In this document: positions 31,939 through 38,340 of the stretch, one piece after another
Layout of the letters: every line of letters starts with the position of its first letter
Numbering within the stretch: position 1 is the first letter of the stretch
NCBI GenBank assembly: GCA_965223545.1
Contig: OZ245006.1
Location: forward strand, 5,728,001 to 5,792,000
DNA length: 64,000 nt
Source: Planctomycetota bacterium
Lineage (GTDB): Bacteria > Planctomycetota > UBA1135 > UBA2386
Direction of reading: 5' to 3'
Notes under the pieces: generated by a model
Told to the model about the DNA's origin: nothing
What the model saw: the letters and a program-made list of their open reading frames with translations, nothing else
Database searches by the model: none
Made by a program: the position numbers and the translations under genes

Positions 31939-33266
31939 GCACCGTGCCGCGTACCGCAGCCGCAGCAATGACGTCGACGGCGGGCGCCGGCCGCCGGCGC
32001 GTTGCCGCCGGGTCATTGGCGCTGCTGGCGGTGGTCCACGGAGCTTGCGTCGGTGGCGTGCGCCGGTCGTTCGATCCGGGGCCCTTTGCCCTGGCCGCCC
32101 AAGCGGCGTTGGCGGCGGGTGACCTGCGCCGCGCCGAGAGCTTGCTGCACGAGGCGCGGCGGCGCACGCGGGGCACCGACGCGGCGGTCCACCTCTGGCT
32201 GGCCACGGTCGCGGCGATGCAGTGGCAGTCCGACGTCGCTCTGCGCCATCTCCGCGTCGTGCTCGACCTGCCCGATCGCGCCGGCTGGACCGAGGCCGAA
32301 GTCCGCGGCGAGATGGGTGACCTGCTGTTCCGCGTCGGCCGTTACGGCGACAGCGCGGCCCATCTGCTGGCCGGCTCCGAGGGGCGTGCCGGCGATTCGC
32401 GCCGTGCGCGGGGCGAGCTGGCTCGACTGCTGCCGTCGCTGCGCAAGACCCCCGCCGTGGAGTTCGCCGAGCTGCCGCTGCTGCAGGGCTCCCTGCCGAG
32501 GTTGTTGTGCGCCGTCGGTCCGCTCGAGCGCGTGTTCGTGCTCGATACCGGCGCCAGCTTCTCGACTCTGTCGCGCAGCATGGCGGGCGAGCTCGGGGTC
32601 GATCCGATCCTGTCCGCTGGGGTCGGCACCGACGGCCAGGGGCAGCGGTTTCCCACCGCCGTTGGCCGGCTGCCGACGTTTGCCCTCGGTGACGTGGATG
32701 TGGGACCACAGCCGGTGCTGGTGGTCGACGACGATCGGCTGGCGGTGCGCGACGTCGCCGATGGGTTCGCCCGTGCGACCGGTGCGCTGGTCGGCCTCGA
32801 CGTGATCACGCGGTTCTCCGCGACGCTCGATCCCGGCCGCGGCAGCCTCGTGCTGCGGCCGCCCGGGCGCCTCGCCGAAGTCGACTCGCAGCCGTGTCTG
32901 TGGGTGCGCAACCGGCTGCTGGTGCCGGTCGAGATCGAGGAGCAGCGGCTGTGGTTCGCGTTGGACACCGGGGCCAGCGCGTCGAGCCTGACCGAGCAGG
33001 GCCTGGGGCTGTTGGTCGGCGGCCACGAACGCGCCCAAGAGGGCTTCCACGAAGTGCTGAGCCCCGGCGGCAGCCGCGTGTCGGTGCGCGTCGTGCGCGG
33101 CCTCGTGCTGCGGGTGAGCGATGTGCGCTTTCGCGGCGTCGACCTACCCGTCCTCGAGCGCGAGGCCCAGGACCTGTTCCCGCTGCACGGCGTTCTCGGC
33201 GCGGACCTGTTGCTGCGTTGTCGGACCACGTTGGATTCGGGGCGCGTGCGGATGGAGGCGTTCTGA
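31935..33266 (+). CDS. TPR plus double retropepsin-like aspartyl protease
   Basis: FVLDTGAS..LVGLD and FALDTGAS..GVLGAD; N-terminal signal and TPR; overlaps the upstream stop. Confidence 0.85.
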   Translation: MSTVPRTAAAAMTSTAGAGRRRVAAGSLALLAVVHGACVGGVRRSFDPGPFALAAQAALAAGDLRRAESLLHEARRRTRGTDAAVHLWLATVAAMQWQSDVALRHLRVVLDLPDRAGWTEAEVRGEMGDLLFRVGRYGDSAAHLLAGSEGRAGDSRRARGELARLLPSLRKTPAVEFAELPLLQGSLPRLLCAVGPLERVFVLDTGASFSTLSRSMAGELGVDPILSAGVGTDGQGQRFPTAVGRLPTFALGDVDVGPQPVLVVDDDRLAVRDVADGFARATGALVGLDVITRFSATLDPGRGSLVLRPPGRLAEVDSQPCLWVRNRLLVPVEIEEQRLWFALDTGASASSLTEQGLGLLVGGHERAQEGFHEVLSPGGSRVSVRVVRGLVLRVSDVRFRGVDLPVLEREAQDLFPLHGVLGADLLLRCRTTLDSGRVRMEAF

Positions 33267-33602
33267 GCGTCAGGGTCCGCAAATCTTCGCGCGGCGACAA
33301 CCTTTCGGAAGGCTCGATTCCGCTAGAACTTCGACAACGCAGCTCCCTGAGGCTCGAAGATAACACTGGCCTCTGGGCTCAGCGCGGCCGCCCGCGACCG
33401 CGGGACCCGCGACCGACGCTCGGGTCGCGGAATGCTCCGTGTTTGGTTGCGGCCCCGGCCGCGCTGAGCCTCGGGGTCCGAGAATGTTCGAGCGGCAACA
33501 ACCTTTCGGAAGGCCCGTCGTCGCCGGGACTTCGATACCGCAACTCCCGGAGGCTCGAAGACAACACGGGCGTCTGCGCTCAGCGTGGCCGCCCGGCACC
33601 GC
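33264..33602. repeat. Composite repeat array A-B-A (A 33264-33381, B 33382-33464, A 33465-33582, partial B)
   Basis: A = 118 bp TGAGC...GCTCA; B = 83 bp GCGCGGCCG...CGGCCGCGC; homologous copies at 34051 and 55086. Confidence 0.9.
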
Positions 33603-33604
33603 TG

Positions 33605-33673
33605 GACGATCAGGAAGCGGACGTCAGCGGCGCACGAGGCGGCCGACAGACCTCTGAAGCCGGGGTTCGTCAC
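33605..33673 (-). pseudogene. N-terminal remnant of a nucleotidyltransferase-family gene truncated at the repeat array
   Basis: MTNPGFRGLSAASCAADVRFLIV resembles the MNxDFxxLLxxxxxxxVRFLIVGG start of such proteins; similarity stops at the repeat. Confidence 0.45.
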
Positions 33674-33836
33674 CTTCTAGCCCTTGGATCGCGCGAGCGT
33701 CGCGCACCATGTCCCACAGTAGCGCGACCTTCTGTTCGCCGGAAAAGTTCGCCCAGAAGGCACGGTTCGCCGCCGCCTCGTCGTCGAAGCTGCGGAAGAG
33801 GCGTCCCGTCACACGTGGCCTTGGCTCGTCGGTCAC
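33624..33836 (-). CDS. Small 70-aa protein of the type found upstream of nucleotidyltransferases (putative TA partner)
   Basis: F+SFDDEAAA..AFW....EQKV.LLW.M...GDEPRLQRSV pattern; overlaps the nucleotidyltransferase remnant. Confidence 0.6.
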   Translation of the reverse strand: MTDEPRPRVTGRLFRSFDDEAAANRAFWANFSGEQKVALLWDMVRDARAIQGLEGDEPRLQRSVGRLVRR

Positions 33837-33959
33837 GTCCTGATTCTACTGCATCACGGCGAGCGGGATGGTGTTCGATGCGCTCAGGCCAGCGCGGCCG
33901 GGCTGCAGCGCTTGGACTACACGCCTGGTGGCGGGCGCGGGCCAGTCGCCGGAGCTGAT

Positions 33960-34050
33960 CGTAGACCAGCGGCCAGCTTTGCGAGCCGGCTCAGCGCCTC
34001 GCCGACGATTTCGAACTGCCGTTCGACCGCGGCCTCGAGCAAACGGGTTC
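33960..34050 (-). pseudogene. HEPN/DUF86 (HepT-like) toxin fragment
   Basis: LLEAAVERQFEIVGEALSRL; lacks the N-terminus (cut by repeat A at 34051) and the RxxxxH motif. Confidence 0.6.
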
Positions 34051-34187
34051 TGAGCGCCCGGGGCCGAGAATCTTCGCGCGGCGAAAACACTTGCGAAGGC
34101 CGGTTGTCGTCAGGACTTCCATACCACAACTCCCGGACGCTGGAAATCAACACGGGCGTCTGCGTTCAGCGCGGCCGGGGCCGCAAC
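34051..34187. repeat. Repeat A copy 3 (34051-34168) plus the left part of an inverted repeat B interrupted by IS110
   Basis: 118-bp A homolog; 34169-34187 GCGCGGCCGGGGCCGCAAC is the reverse complement of 33446-33464. Confidence 0.9.
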
Positions 34188-34199
34188 GGTATGTGTGGT

Positions 34200-34545
34200 T
34201 CCATGATCTGCGAAGCTAGAGTTCTCCACACCCGTCGCGCCGTAGCGGTGTGGAAGACTCGCGCGATGGTGCAGCCGCAGGAGTCGTGTCGGGAGTCTGG
34301 TCATCGGCCGCAAGAGAGCTTAGGGTCCCCCGGCGTGCGACGGAGAGGTTTCGCGATCTGCCGCAATGGTGGCGCTTCGAGCGGCCCCTCATTTGGTTCT
34401 GCGACTCTCCTCCCGCGTGGGGGACCCGATTTAGGAGATTGGCGGCGTGAGAAATCACGGCCCCGAAACACGAACCGTTTTGGCGACTCGCCTCCTCAGG
34501 CGGACTGCGCGGGTAGGGAGAGTCCTCTCGTCGACACTCACTCGT
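34200..34545 (+). ncRNA. Putative bridge RNA in the IS110 left non-coding end (ends approximate)
   Basis: Stems 34219-34260, GGGTCCCCC/GGGGGACCC (34323/34427), GGAGAG/CTCTCC; loop segments match target (34360-34366, 34392-34398) and donor (34431-34439, 34474-34478). Confidence 0.75.
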
Positions 34546-34561
34546 TGAACATGGAGGGGAC

Positions 34562-36064
34562 ATGAATCGATTCGTTGGATTGGATCTCGGCTTGAGGAGC
34601 AAGCACCGAGCCGTCGTTCTGGATGGTGCGAAGTCTCGGGGCAGACCGTTTTCAGTCGAGAACAGCCGTGAGGGTATTGACCTTCTGCTGCGCCGTGCAC
34701 AGGAAGGTGCCGAGGGTCCGGTGAGCTTCGTGATGGAACCAACGGGGTTGGCGTGGCTGCCCATCGCGGCGCACGTGAACGCCGCAGGGTTCCAGATCTA
34801 CGTGAGCAAACCACAGAAGCTGAGCGACCTGCGGAAGTTCTATAGCAAGCACACCAAAACCGACGTAGTAGACGCCGAGGCCGCTGCGCGTCTGCCGCAG
34901 ATGGATCCAAAGGGCGTCCACCAGCTGCGTGTTCCAACTGCCGACGAGACGACGATCCGTCGACTCGTGAAGCGGCGTGAGCGGTTGGCGCGCGAGCTCA
35001 GCGACCACAAGCGTCGTGTGCACGCGATACTGGTACTGGCGAATCCCAGCCTCATGAAGGCCTTGGGGGCAGAGAAGTTCAGTGCCGCTAAGATGGGGTT
35101 TCTGCGGCGCTACGTCGATCCGGTGAAAGCGGTCGGCCTTGGGAAGAGTCGCTTGGAGCGCTTCTTGACGAAGCGATCCAAGGGAACGCATGACCCGTGC
35201 TTGGTCGACCGCGTGCTCGAGTCCTGCCGACAGGCCGCCGAGTACTACGCTGAGCTGCGAGCTGCGGGGCAGATGCCGTTCGACTACGAGGCCATCCAAG
35301 AGGATGTGGTGTACGAGCTGGATGAGATCGAGCGCAAGAACACGGACGTTCGCAAGCTCGACGCAAAGATCAAGAAGCTCTACCTGGGCGTCGATCCTGA
35401 CCGAACACTCGAGCAACTGCGCGGCGTCGGTCCCACGATCGCTGCGGCCATCGAAGCCTTGGTAGGCGACATCGCGCGGTTCTCGAACGGCAAGAAGTTC
35501 GTGAGCTACTGCGGACTGTGTCCACGCCGGAAGCAGACGGGCATGAGCGACCCCTCGATGCCAATCACCAAAACCGGCCAACGAGTACTCAAGAAGTACC
35601 TCTACCTAGCAGCTGACGTCGCTCGCCAGTGGGATCCGGATTTCGCGGCGTACTACGCTCGCCGCTACGCCGCAGGTGATCACCACAACCTCATCCTCAT
35701 CGCATTGGCTGGCAAGATGGCGCGCCGCGTCTACGCCCTCCTGAAGCGTCGCGACAGCCAGCGCGCCGATGACAAGCCGGCGTCGACGCAAGTCCGCTAC
35801 GTCCTGCGAGACGCCGACGGCAACGAGCTCACGAAGGTTGCCGCGCGCGCGCTCATCGCAGCCAAGTTCACGCGCAGCATCGTCGCGCCACAGCGGCATG
35901 AGCGCGACCAACGGCGACAGGGACGAGTGGGGACTCCGACGACGAGGGACTTGAGTGGCCGCCCAATGGACGCCACAGGCCTGGCCGTGGAATCCCCACG
36001 TCAACCTCACCCGATCGGTGATCTCATGCAAGAACACTTCCCTGGTCTTGTGGAAGAGTCCTGA
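34562..36064 (+). CDS. IS110-family transposase / bridge recombinase (500 aa)
   Basis: VGLD(8), ME(59)PTG, KTD(101)VVD(104)A; LRGVGPTIAA..GDIARF..YCGLCP; RBS GGAGGGG. Confidence 0.96.
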   Translation: MNRFVGLDLGLRSKHRAVVLDGAKSRGRPFSVENSREGIDLLLRRAQEGAEGPVSFVMEPTGLAWLPIAAHVNAAGFQIYVSKPQKLSDLRKFYSKHTKTDVVDAEAAARLPQMDPKGVHQLRVPTADETTIRRLVKRRERLARELSDHKRRVHAILVLANPSLMKALGAEKFSAAKMGFLRRYVDPVKAVGLGKSRLERFLTKRSKGTHDPCLVDRVLESCRQAAEYYAELRAAGQMPFDYEAIQEDVVYELDEIERKNTDVRKLDAKIKKLYLGVDPDRTLEQLRGVGPTIAAAIEALVGDIARFSNGKKFVSYCGLCPRRKQTGMSDPSMPITKTGQRVLKKYLYLAADVARQWDPDFAAYYARRYAAGDHHNLILIALAGKMARRVYALLKRRDSQRADDKPASTQVRYVLRDADGNELTKVAARALIAAKFTRSIVAPQRHERDQRRQGRVGTPTTRDLSGRPMDATGLAVESPRQPHPIGDLMQEHFPGLVEES

Positions 36065-36106
36065 ACAAGCCGTGCACACGCGATGTCGAGCCCCAGCGAA
36101 AACCCC

Positions 36107-36112
36107 TTGACA
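36107..36112 (+). promoter_or_regulatory. -35 box TTGACA of the IS110 circle-junction promoter
   Basis: After end joining it lies 17 bp from TATGTG (34190-34195), with TG at the extended -10 position. Confidence 0.7.
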
Positions 36113-36127
36113 TGACTTAGGAGATAT

Positions 36128-36195
36128 CAAACACGGAGCATTCCGCGACCCGAGGTCGGTCGCGGGTCCCGCGGTCGCCGGCGGCCGCGCTGAGC
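36128..36195. repeat. Right part of the interrupted, inverted repeat B
   Basis: CAAACACGGAGCATTCCGCGACCCGAG...GCGGCCGCGCTGAGC is a near-identical reverse complement of 33377-33445. Confidence 0.9.
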
Positions 36196-36277
36196 GTAGT
36201 CCCCAAAGCTCTTACCCACCGTGGACTCGAAGTCAGCATCTCTACGACGAGCGAGCCGTGCGCGCTACTTTCGCGGT

Positions 36278-36472
36278 ATGGCGGACTGGACGTCGTTCTA
36301 CTACCAGCTGGCGGTCGGTGGATTGGTGTTTGCCGTCGGCATGTTCGTCGGTGTGCGCACCGGCCAGCTCGGCGGTAGTGGGCGTGGCCTGCGCCGCGCT
36401 GGCTGGCTGCTGGCGGGGTTGGTCTTCTTCGCGGCGCTGCAGGCGGCGCTGACCGCGTGGGGTGGGCCGTGA
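36278..36472 (+). CDS. Small two-TM membrane protein coupled to the symporter
   Basis: 64 aa, two hydrophobic helices, GTGA overlap with the next gene. Confidence 0.65.
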   Translation: MADWTSFYYQLAVGGLVFAVGMFVGVRTGQLGGSGRGLRRAGWLLAGLVFFAALQAALTAWGGP

Positions 36473-38340
36473 CGGCGCAGGTGGCGCTGCACGGCCTCGA
36501 TGTGGCCGTCGTGCTGGTCTACTTCGCCGGCATCACGGCGTTCGGCGCGTTCGTCGGCCGCTCGGTCGGCACGACGCGTGACTTCTTTCTCGCCGGGCAG
36601 CGGTTTCCGGCGTGGTTGGTGGCGTTCTCCTGCGTGGCGACGCTCGTTGGCTCCTACTCCTTCGTCAAGTACAGCTCGCGGGGCTTCGAGCACGGCCTGT
36701 CGTCGTCGCAGACCTACCTGAACGACTGGTACTGGATGCCGCTGTGGATGCTCGGCTGGTTGCCGATGATCTACTTCGGCGGCGTGCTGTCGGTGCCGGA
36801 GTACTTCGGTCGACGCTTCGATCGCCGGGCGCGGGCGGCGGCCACCGTGATGCTGCTGCTGTATCTGGTCGGCTACATCGGCATCAACCTGTACACCATC
36901 GGCGTCGCGCTCGAGACCCTGCTGCGCGGCTCACTCGGCCTCGACACCCTGACGCTGGCCGCGATCACAGCGGCGCTGTGCATGGCTTATGAGTTCACCG
37001 GTGGCCAGCTGTCGGTGATCTTCACCGATCTGGTTCAGGGTGTGCTGCTTCTCGTCGTCGGCCTCTTGCTGTTCGCCGTCGGCATCGCCCATCTCGGTGG
37101 GCTCGATCAGTTCTGGCAGCTGCTGCCCGCGGGCCACCGCCAACCCCTGCCGGCGTTCAACGACGACCCCGGCTGGAACTTCGTCGGCATCTTTTGCCAA
37201 GACGGCGTCGCCGGTGGGGTGGCGTTCTACTTCATGAGCCAGGCGATGCTGATGCGCTTCCTGTCGGCGCGCTCGGTCGGCACCGCGCGGCGCGCCGCGG
37301 CGCTGGTGGTGATCGTGCTGATGCCGCTGGCGGCGATCGCCGTGTCGGGAGCCGGCTGGCTCGGTGCCGCCATGGTCGGCAAGGGCACGCTGCCCGCCGA
37401 TACCGCGCCGAGCGACGTGTTCGTCGTGGTCGCGCACCTGCTTTGCGGTCCTGGGCTGTTCGGCCTGGTGGTGGCGGCCATGCTGGCGGCGCTGATGTCG
37501 ACGGCCGACACCCTGATCAACGCGTCGTCGGCCGTGCTGATCAACGACGTCTACCGGCCCATGCGCCCGGGCCGAGACGACCGGCACTACCTGCGGGCGG
37601 CGCGGTTGGCGTCGCTCTTGGTCGCCGCGATCGGCTTGGCACTGGTGCCCGTCTACCAGGGGTTCGCCTCGATCTACCAGGCGCACGGCGCCTTCACGGC
37701 GGCGATCACTCCGCCGCTCGTGGCGGCGATCCTGCTGGCGTGCACTTGGCCGCGGATGACGACTGCCGGAGCACTCGCCACCCTGATCGGTGGTGCGGCC
37801 GCGATGTTGGCGTCGATCCCGTGGCCCGGTCTGGTGGCGCCGTTTGCCCACGGCGTGCCGCCGGACGGTGGCTACACCTACGTGCGCGCCTGTTACGGTC
37901 TGGCAGCAGCGATGCTGCTGGGCATCGGCGTCAGCCTCTGCACGGCGCCCCGCCCGCGGGCCGAGATCGACGCGCTGACCGTGTGGGGTTGCCGCAAGCG
38001 CGCCTCGACCAGCGCGACGGCGGCCGGGCGCTCCCGCCGTTGGCGCGGACACGCCGCGGCCGCGCCGTTGGTAGCGGACGCGCGAACGCAGGTCGCGGCC
38101 GACGGTGCCCTGCCCGAAGTCGGGCTGTCGCGCGCGGCGCGCGCGCGCCTGGCGGTGGACACCGGCGACGTCGTGTTCATCGACGAGGCGCGGTGGTGGC
38201 GCGGTGGGTTGAGCTCGGTGCGGGCGCGGGTCGGCGCCGAGATCGTCGACGGCGACGGCACGCTCCGACTGGCGCCGGCGGCGATGCGCGCGGCCGGCTT
38301 CGCCGAGCGCGCGGCGGTCGTCGTCGAGCGCGTCGATTGA
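36469..38340 (+). CDS. Sodium:solute symporter (SSS family)
   Basis: DFFLAG, SVPEYFGRRF, FTGGQLSVIFTD, AAMLAALMSTADT..N; many TM helices. Confidence 0.93.
   Translation: MTAQVALHGLDVAVVLVYFAGITAFGAFVGRSVGTTRDFFLAGQRFPAWLVAFSCVATLVGSYSFVKYSSRGFEHGLSSSQTYLNDWYWMPLWMLGWLPMIYFGGVLSVPEYFGRRFDRRARAAATVMLLLYLVGYIGINLYTIGVALETLLRGSLGLDTLTLAAITAALCMAYEFTGGQLSVIFTDLVQGVLLLVVGLLLFAVGIAHLGGLDQFWQLLPAGHRQPLPAFNDDPGWNFVGIFCQDGVAGGVAFYFMSQAMLMRFLSARSVGTARRAAALVVIVLMPLAAIAVSGAGWLGAAMVGKGTLPADTAPSDVFVVVAHLLCGPGLFGLVVAAMLAALMSTADTLINASSAVLINDVYRPMRPGRDDRHYLRAARLASLLVAAIGLALVPVYQGFASIYQAHGAFTAAITPPLVAAILLACTWPRMTTAGALATLIGGAAAMLASIPWPGLVAPFAHGVPPDGGYTYVRACYGLAAAMLLGIGVSLCTAPRPRAEIDALTVWGCRKRASTSATAAGRSRRWRGHAAAAPLVADARTQVAADGALPEVGLSRAARARLAVDTGDVVFIDEARWWRGGLSSVRARVGAEIVDGDGTLRLAPAAMRAAGFAERAAVVVERVD

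Follow-up and report, generated by a model that had tools for sequence, protein, structure and literature searches.

A probable bridge RNA in the left end of an IS110-group insertion sequence with unlike core dinucleotides at its two junctions

Introduction

Bridge RNAs serve as programmable recombination tools and have already been described for the IS110 family, and the central claim of the present study is in that sense not new. In IS621, as described in PMC11208160 and PMC11208158, the RNA derives from a long left end upstream of a recombinase with DEDD and Tnp domains. Its parts, in order, are a 5' stem-loop with a linker after it, then the target-binding and the donor-binding loop; in either loop the guide on the 5' side is sense and the one on the 3' side antisense. 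According to the account in PMC11208160, a −35 element lies in the right end and a −10 element in the left end, and the target and the element share a core dinucleotide, which is seen at both junctions and is included in all four guides. In IS621 the top strands are cut directly 3' of this core and are the first to be exchanged; as presented in PMC11208158, the authors of the structure leave the fate of the bottom strands open. In CazIS110-1, top-strand insertion was reported to exceed bottom-strand insertion >1300-fold (10.1101/2025.10.25.684509), and a cell-free IS621 system was reported to yield single-strand circles (10.64898/2026.08.31.748434); both preprints describe excision and insertion of the top strand only. 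The IS1111 group likewise uses a target-selecting RNA from a non-coding end, the seekRNA (Siddiquee et al. 2024, PMC11187229), and in IS1111 elements the RNA lies in a long right end and subterminal inverted repeats are present.

We analyzed a window of 64,000 nucleotides (the whole stretch of DNA under study, from contig OZ245006.1 of the Planctomycetota bacterium assembly GCA_965223545.1), in which an IS110-family element had been predicted to encode a bridge RNA with readable guides. The element resembles IS621 in that a long left end precedes the gene for a DEDD and Tnp recombinase, in the order of the RNA parts and in the placement of the guides within the loops; candidate −35 and −10 sequences stand in its right and left ends. 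It is likewise inserted into a genomic repeat, with the crossover 3' of a dinucleotide and T as the second base of the element's own dinucleotide. It differs from IS621 in its protein (500 versus 326 amino acids), in its RNA region (~300 nt versus a 177-nt RNA), in having AT as the core of the element and AC as that of the target, and in having Thr at the position of Ser241. The clade to which it belongs appears to depart from the IS621 type in recombinase size, in the core rule and, for a third of its members, in the nucleophile residue.

Results

The element occupies positions 34188-36127 of the window and is 1940 bp long (Table 1). An uninterrupted copy of the target repeat on the minus strand is identical (100%) to 34166-34187 joined to 36128-36154; because this copy matches both flanks back to back (22 + 27 nt), the inserted DNA is exactly 34188-36127. 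The empty insertion point AAC|CAAA, on which the original prediction had relied, is borne out by this copy. Eleven copies of the element are present in the genome, each identical at 1940/1940 positions, and every one has GCCGCAAC at its left and CAAA(C/G) at its right. The 12-mer GCCGCAACCAAA marks 95 further unoccupied sites, all inside one repeat family; by arithmetic from base composition, about one occurrence is expected by chance. In addition, in the likely source sample the element forms one collapsed contig with a depth ~10 times that of its flanks, which together with the 11 identical copies looks like a recent burst. The recombinase gene was absent at E <= 1e-40 from 90 other genomes of the same taxonomic family, and a scan of species genomes returned distant relatives only (8 loci, best identity 42%). 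The non-coding ends measure 374 nt at the left and 63 nt at the right. By the end-length rule given in PMC11208160, this combination fits the IS110 group and not the long-right-ended IS1111 group, and 34188-36127 is, judged by these features, evidently a recently active IS110-group insertion sequence.

The target repeat family consists of units of ~140-200 nt with a GC-rich palindromic core. Units were found at 33263-33607, 34050-34193 and 36128-36204 of the window and at ~100 places in the genome (G000); three of them stand in tandem immediately upstream of the element.

Table 1. Positions in the window of the element's features, its target and the reference empty site
Feature	Positions	Strand	Remarks
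Reference empty site (unoccupied target-repeat copy)	33419..33467	-	22 + 27 nt flank matches
Left target GCCGCAAC	34180..34187	+	identical in 11/11 copies; final AC is the target's core
Right-donor arm GGT and -10-like TATGTG (34190-34195)	34188..34195	+	putative; GGTAT aligned at most homologue left ends
5' stem-loop	34219..34260	+	core stem 34225-34231 / 34248-34254, UCCACAC / GUGUGGA; present in fold
Second GGCCGCAA match in linker	34306..34313	+	probably incidental
Target-binding loop	34323..34427	+	long bulged stem, internal loop, inner hairpin 34368-34388
Left target guide (LTG) GCCGCAAU, sense	34360..34367	+	predicted; 5' side of internal loop; 7/8 against left flank, U opposite C
Right target guide (RTG) UUUGGUU, antisense to A-AC-CAAA	34392..34398	+	predicted; 3' side of internal loop
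Left donor guide (LDG) UUAGGAGAU, sense copy of right end 36117-36125	34431..34439	+	predicted; 9/9 here
Donor-loop hairpin including CGUGA-GAAA-UCACG	34440..34465	+	helix 4: 9 pairs, 4 compensatory, 96% of cells paired
Right donor guide (RDG) ACCGUU, antisense to A-AC-GGT of integrated left junction	34474..34479	+	predicted; core tracks RTG core
Two 3' hairpins between guide-RNA region and ribosome-binding site	34489..34530	+	CGCC...GGCG 34489-34502; GGAG...CUCC near 34516-34530
Recombinase gene, 500 aa	34562..36064	+	PF01548, PF02371, NF033542; aligns to ISCro4 and IS621 recombinases
-35 TTGACA in right end	36107..36112	+	putative; position kept in right ends
Left donor arm TTAGGAGAT and element's own core AT (36126-36127)	36117..36127	+	AT after the 9-nt arm in 25/30 elements
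Right target CAAA	36128..36131	+	identical in 11/11 copies; complementary to UUUG of RTG

Every string named in the original prediction is in place in the left end. The stem strands are GGGTCCCCC (34323-34331) with GGGGGACCC (34419-34427) and GGAGAG (34342-34347) with CTCTCC (34405-34410); GCCGCAA at 34360-34366 is the same as 34180-34186, and TTTGGTT stands at 34392-34398. Farther 3', TTAGGAGAT at 34431-34439 equals 36117-36125 and is followed by the CGTGA-GAAA-TCACG hairpin (34446-34459) and ACCGTT (34474-34479), and GGCCGCAA lies 5' of the stem at 34306-34313. We compared the guide matches with those obtained after dinucleotide shuffling of the left end (2000 shuffles). The sense match to the left flank was equalled in 125 shuffles, the antisense 7-mer in 313, the 9-mer right-end match in 4 and the 6-mer antisense match to the left junction in 1088; all four were reached jointly in 0/2000. 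The minimum-free-energy folds of 34188-34561 and 34300-34500 were not better than those of shuffled sequences (z −0.98 and −0.78, respectively), and the minimum-energy fold pairs parts of the LTG and RTG with each other, which is expected because one is sense and the other antisense to overlapping bases of the target. Searching 33000-37000 against Rfam with E values of up to 1 gave a sole match, a chance snoRNA hit within the gene. The window on its own is therefore weak evidence, three of the four guide matches being common in shuffles. The same shuffles and the non-significant fold, together with hairpins right upstream of the ribosome-binding site that look regulatory, speak for reading the left end as a mere 5' leader that regulates the recombinase, with the right-end match as a protein-binding subterminal repeat and the target matches as chance. 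The significance of the guide-RNA reading comes from homologues.

A protein search returned 103 relatives at E <= 1e-30, with the best non-self match 73% identical; most of them lie on metagenome contigs of ~2 kb. A scan of metagenome contigs using an alignment of 68 proteins gave 80 loci. The flanks of the homologues come mostly from single short metagenome contigs, which are possibly chimeric. The donor-loop motif was recognized in 38 of 88 fetched loci, which with the window made 39 rows and 31 distinct guide sets; the analysis covered these rows, the remaining 50 loci being mostly more distant relatives. The alignments, made by MAFFT, were regular enough to serve in place of a covariance model. 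The DNA of the left end is itself conserved, with 17 blastn matches over left-end positions 134-346 and mostly over 174-333, the loop-bearing part, in homologues whose recombinases are only ~45-58% identical. Among the metagenome loci, the one with the most similar recombinase (58%; L050:1-1181) is without a recognizable donor-loop motif and its upstream region aligns poorly; its left end may differ, or the contig may be chimeric.

RNAalifold applied to 20 non-redundant left ends gave 29 pairs, 19 of them with compensatory changes. After four pairs within invariant guide segments were dropped, 25 pairs in four helices were left: the outer and inner parts of the long stem, the hairpin within the stem and a second hairpin farther 3'. 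In these helices 96.0% of cells are paired, and sliding the 3' partners by 1-3 columns lowers this to 36-53%; 19/25 pairs show changes on both sides, and 0/500 column shuffles attain any of five structure measures. The three helices of the target loop account for 16 pairs, 15 with compensatory changes, and have 90-100% of cells paired. The guide segments are the unpaired stretches between helices, and the two internal loops are held by conserved stems. Folding had been proposed as a check of the original prediction: the single-sequence fold is not significant, and the helices supported by homologues leave the guides in unpaired stretches.

The whole left end is laid out as a 5' stem-loop, a linker, the target-binding loop, the donor-binding loop, two small hairpins and the ribosome-binding site. 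The 5' stem-loop is kept as UCCACAG...CUGUGGA in 15 aligned left ends, with 7 pairs and few compensatory changes. It had been taken for an addition to the IS621 plan; the IS621 bridge RNA, as described in PMC11208158 and PMC11208160, likewise begins with a 5' stem-loop, and that part of the original prediction does not hold. The extra length of the left end sits in the linker, which is partly specific to the element in the window, and in the 3' hairpins. The positions of the two 3' hairpins stay hairpin-forming with altered letters in homologues (judged by eye, with no score). The second target match GGCCGCAA in the linker, which had also been pointed out as a distinguishing feature, is without counterpart in any aligned homologue and is probably incidental; an 8-nt sense match of this kind arises in 125/2000 shuffles. 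As it is not conserved, we rejected it as a functional second guide.

Between the guide-RNA region and the ribosome-binding site, 34508-34561 contains the conserved GGAG...CUCC hairpin and the motif CGCGCGG, for which the target loop's outer stem is a further possible pairing partner. The hairpin and this motif may link folding of the RNA to translation of the recombinase.

Next to the structure, we compared the guides of each element with its own insertion site. The table made for this purpose lists, for each element, the two sides of either loop, the left flank up to GGTAT and the bases that come after the right arm. As the LTG we took, from the 5' side of the target loop, the eight bases that precede a conserved U-GG, and offsets of −1, 0 and +1 were permitted for real and permuted pairs alike. 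The LTG matched its own left flank at a mean of 6.45/8 positions, compared with 3.25 for the flanks of other elements (438 cross pairs). For 18 distinct guides, the own-flank sum was 116/144 against 62.0 ± 6.0 for permuted pairs (0/20000 permutations). The reverse complement of the RTG, compared with the first seven bases of the right flank, scored 88/126 against 51.9 ± 4.5 (18 distinct guides; 0/20000 permutations). The RTG score was 7/7 in L098, 6/7 in L031, L057, L063, L070 and L084, and 4/7 in the window (CAAA); element L061 fits its own guides poorly. In other words, both target-guide segments follow each homologue's own flanks, which is the behavior that the original prediction had named as its check.

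With respect to the crossover, the LTG does not keep one register: it stands at +1 in L051-54, at 0 in the window and L055-62, and at −1 in L066-87. The U before the stem at the LTG is invariant in 20 aligned left ends despite this shift, and in several elements the guide plus GGU copies the entire left junction through GGT. A comparison of the handshake guide at position 7 between target and donor gave 11 versus 10 and 12 versus 9 of 18, the position being mostly A.

In the donor loop, the LDG agrees with the right arm at 7-9 of 9 positions in all 30 elements having a right end. Both segments are conserved family-wide, and this match therefore represents consistency and not covariation. The RDG consists of ACC opposite GGT followed by the complement of the two-base core; its contiguous match is short (5-6 nt). 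The sense guide of the donor loop matches the right end and its antisense guide the left end. At the RDG the original prediction needs a correction: ACCGT(T) is the complement of the left junction in its integrated form (AC + GGT), not of the circle junction expected from the right end (AT + GGT).

With the architecture present and the guides covarying with the insertion sites of homologues, the left end of this element is very probably a genuine bridge RNA. A leader with a protein-binding site leaves two things unaccounted for, namely loop segments that track each homologue's flanks (0/20000 permutations, twice) and the joint change of the RTG and RDG cores (38/39), and we regard that explanation as extremely improbable. 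A different possibility is that the element is RNA-guided, but that its target and donor loops act as separate transcripts, or that a truncated target-loop RNA is dominant as in CazIS110-1, for which an abundant target-loop-only RNA and a direct-transfer pathway are described (10.1101/2025.10.25.684509). In the IS621 complex as reported in PMC11208158, the two loops derive from two RNA molecules, and the RDG in the window fits the direct-transfer substrate (the integrated left junction) better than it fits the circle. Since the two loops here are contiguous and conserved as a unit, we consider this possibility improbable; it is a variant of the bridge-RNA explanation and does not contradict it.

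We then examined the core dinucleotides at the junctions. The left junction reads ...GCA-AC|GGTATG and the right junction ...GAGAT-AT|CAAA, and neither boundary allows a base to be moved across it. In 11/11 copies the left junction retains the target's AC and the right junction the element's AT. The RTG and RDG in the window both read AC, and the LTG ends in AU. That is, the target and the donor do not have the same core dinucleotide, and the two junctions hence do not share one. We also considered that AAC belongs to the element's left end; this was ruled out, as there is no AAC duplication at the right junction. The reciprocal arrangement was absent from the genome, with GCCGCAAT followed by GGTATG and GGAGATAC followed by CAAA each occurring 0 times.

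Across the family, the RTG core equals the RDG core in 38/39 rows, in types AC, AG, AT, CC and GT, and in 25/26 the left flank ends in the same base as the second one of the RTG core. At the right junction the dinucleotide equals the core of the guides in 14/30 rows and is discordant in 16/30; 14 of the 16 discordant rows have AT at the right junction and guides reading AC or AG. In a maximum-likelihood tree built from 27 recombinases (three duplicates among the 30 elements having right ends were left out), discordance needs 4 changes, two of them forced by well-supported branches. It fills an eight-member subclade, in which the core of the guides switches between AC and AG and the right end stays AT. 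The general rule in these rows is that the RDG matches the integrated left junction.

Wobble pairing was considered as an explanation of the unlike cores. In AC-type elements the guides can pair with both cores: the U of the LTG faces G or A on the bottom strand, and the G of the RTG or RDG faces C or T; G-T pairs are present in the IS621 complex as described in PMC11208158. As a general explanation, G-U/G-T wobble suits the AC type, including the element in the window, and fails for the AG type, in which the guide's C is opposite the element's T.

Exchange of the top strands alone would yield a left junction made of left target, target core and right donor, and a right junction made of left donor, element core and right target. 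Copy-out and top-strand-only transfer, as proposed for CazIS110-1 (10.1101/2025.10.25.684509) and cell-free IS621 (10.64898/2026.08.31.748434), predict the left-target and right-donor cores seen here; those are bench results with matched-core elements, and ours are natural junction sequences alone. Staggered exchange without bias would make half of the descendants concordant, and AT persists, so the bottom strand would either not be exchanged by the enzyme or never become fixed. We give an even chance to the reading that transfer is effectively top-strand-only, with the cut 3' of the core as in IS621.

The unlike cores could also arise from a real bridge RNA by double-strand exchange, either at the same phosphodiester or through a 2-nt heteroduplex that is always corrected to the top strand. 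Double-strand exchange or biased repair yields identical final junctions; the IS621 structures, in the account of PMC11208158, show bottom-strand cleavage, and their authors invoke repair of mismatched nucleotides. In addition, a 5-bp GGTAT scar at two sites suggests that a site can lose its element. On the other side, a staggered and unbiased exchange would place the target's core at the right end in half of the copies (seen in 0/11), 14 diverged relatives retain AT though their guides read AC or AG, and two independent preprints report direct measurements of top-strand preference (10.1101/2025.10.25.684509, 10.64898/2026.08.31.748434). We consider double-strand exchange unlikely, less so than the two alternatives to a one-piece bridge RNA weighed above.

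The two sites just mentioned read GCCGCAAC-GGTAT-CAAA (G000 C1:611327 (+) and C1:7528241 (-)) and are otherwise normal; the GGTAT equals the first five bases of the element and is located precisely at the insertion point. Run X1, likewise, has a contig joint 34189->36125. We asked if such a site might be the real target, which would give a matched AT core and a 1935-bp element, and rejected this on three grounds: the RTG reads AAC directly adjoining CAAA, GGTAT accompanies the element in homologues with unrelated targets, and empty sites without GGTAT outnumber those with it by 95 to 2. Our best guess is that the GGTAT sites are scars of element loss through an exchange ...GGTAT^GTG x ...GATAT^CAAA, which is the only site pair with matched AT.

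The ends of the element also contain the parts of a candidate promoter. In a circle, TTGACA of the right end and TATGTG of the left end would be spaced by 17 nt, i.e., 15 nt of the right end plus GG of the left end, as calculated from coordinates. TTGAC occurs at an equal offset in 24/30 right ends and TTG in 29/30 (by eye), and TATGTG matches 3/6 bases of the −10 consensus. GGTAT was seen at the left end in most of 25 homologous upstream regions, and the later tables used it as a search motif. A sigma-70-like site was not found in the linear context 34000-36300. The circle junction was likewise not found: the joined-end 14-mer occurs 0 times in the genome and contigs of runs X1, X5 and X6 contain no 36127->34188 joint, such contigs missing rare forms. 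The promoter would be complete only once the right and left ends join.

The recombinase matches PF01548 at residues 5-162 (E 1.9e-24), PF02371 at residues 281-366 (E 4e-21) and the NCBIfam family NF033542, 'IS110 family RNA-guided transposase' (208.7 bits, cut-off 140). By these profiles it has the N-terminal DEDD (RuvC-like) and C-terminal Tnp domains of the IS110 family. Three of the four DEDD residues were counted: D101 and D104 are kept in 68/68 clade members, and position 59 is E in 61 and D in 7. Among solved relatives, the ISCro4 transposase (PDB 9t56) is the best by sequence (E 9.2e-17) and shares both domains in the protein comparison; it has 341 amino acids compared with 500 here. 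The alignment with IS621 is limited to residues 21-157 and 262-396, the present protein having a longer middle and a conserved C-terminal extension of ~100 amino acids. T326 (window 35537-35539) aligns with the catalytic Ser241 of IS621, and at this position the clade alignment has S in 47/68 and T in 21/68. Given the 11 identical copies, the Thr form is probably active.

The C-terminal extension (residues ~400-500, window 35762-36061) has R416, A428, R429 and R438 invariant in the clade, and the middle region (residues ~163-262, window 35050-35345) is much longer than in IS621. Both regions lie outside the Pfam matches and the solved structures; they might contact the extra parts of the RNA.

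Discussion

From the sequence of this element and its relatives, we infer its transcription, protein binding, programmability, own specificity and strandedness as follows. The left end, ~34200-34500, would encode the bridge RNA, transcribed from the joined-end promoter with its −35 in the right end and its −10 in the left end. In the target loop, GCCGCAAU would be the guide of the same sense as the left target, and UUUGGUU the one complementary to AAC-CAAA; in the donor loop, UUAGGAGAU would have the same sense as the right end, and ACCGU would be complementary to the core plus GGT of the left end. The 500-aa DEDD/Tnp recombinase would bind this RNA, by analogy with IS621, and the RNA would align the joined element ends with GCCGCAAC|CAAA in the genomic repeat. 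Under top-strand-only transfer, each new copy would keep the target's core AC at its left and the element's core AT at its right.

For the clade of ~500-aa recombinases as a whole, we tentatively propose, with slightly less than even confidence, that the core is unshared: the element always has AT after its right arm, the targets have A followed by C, G or T, and it is the base of the target that the RTG and RDG follow. Such a pattern would naturally record top-strand-only spread with a cut 3' of the core, the host making the complementary strand; a third of the clade would use a Thr nucleophile, and the GGTAT scars would reflect rare double-strand loss via the sole matched AT...AT pair. Durrant et al. 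retained only matches with a concordant core, as described in PMC11208160, and because of this requirement their pipeline would probably have filtered out elements with discordant cores.

In one subclade of relatives (L031, L066-L069, L072 and L078-L080), the stop codon of the recombinase lies within CTTAGGAGAAAT and the element stands directly before C(A/G)TG, so that AGGAGA and a spacer precede the apparent start codon of a host gene. Elements of this subclade seem to separate the start codon of a gene from its ribosome-binding site and to supply a new site.

As a well-delimited new system, the element adds a usable orthologue: its 12-bp target can be read, 95 empty sites exist naturally, and its family offers 31 distinct guide sets. 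The Thr at the nucleophile position of an evidently recently active element bears on the chemistry of these recombinases. Finally, exchange of both strands or of the top strand only in IS110 is disputed between the 2024 structural model and the preprints of 2025-2026; elements whose core differs from that of the target naturally mark the strands, and this clade supplies many of them.
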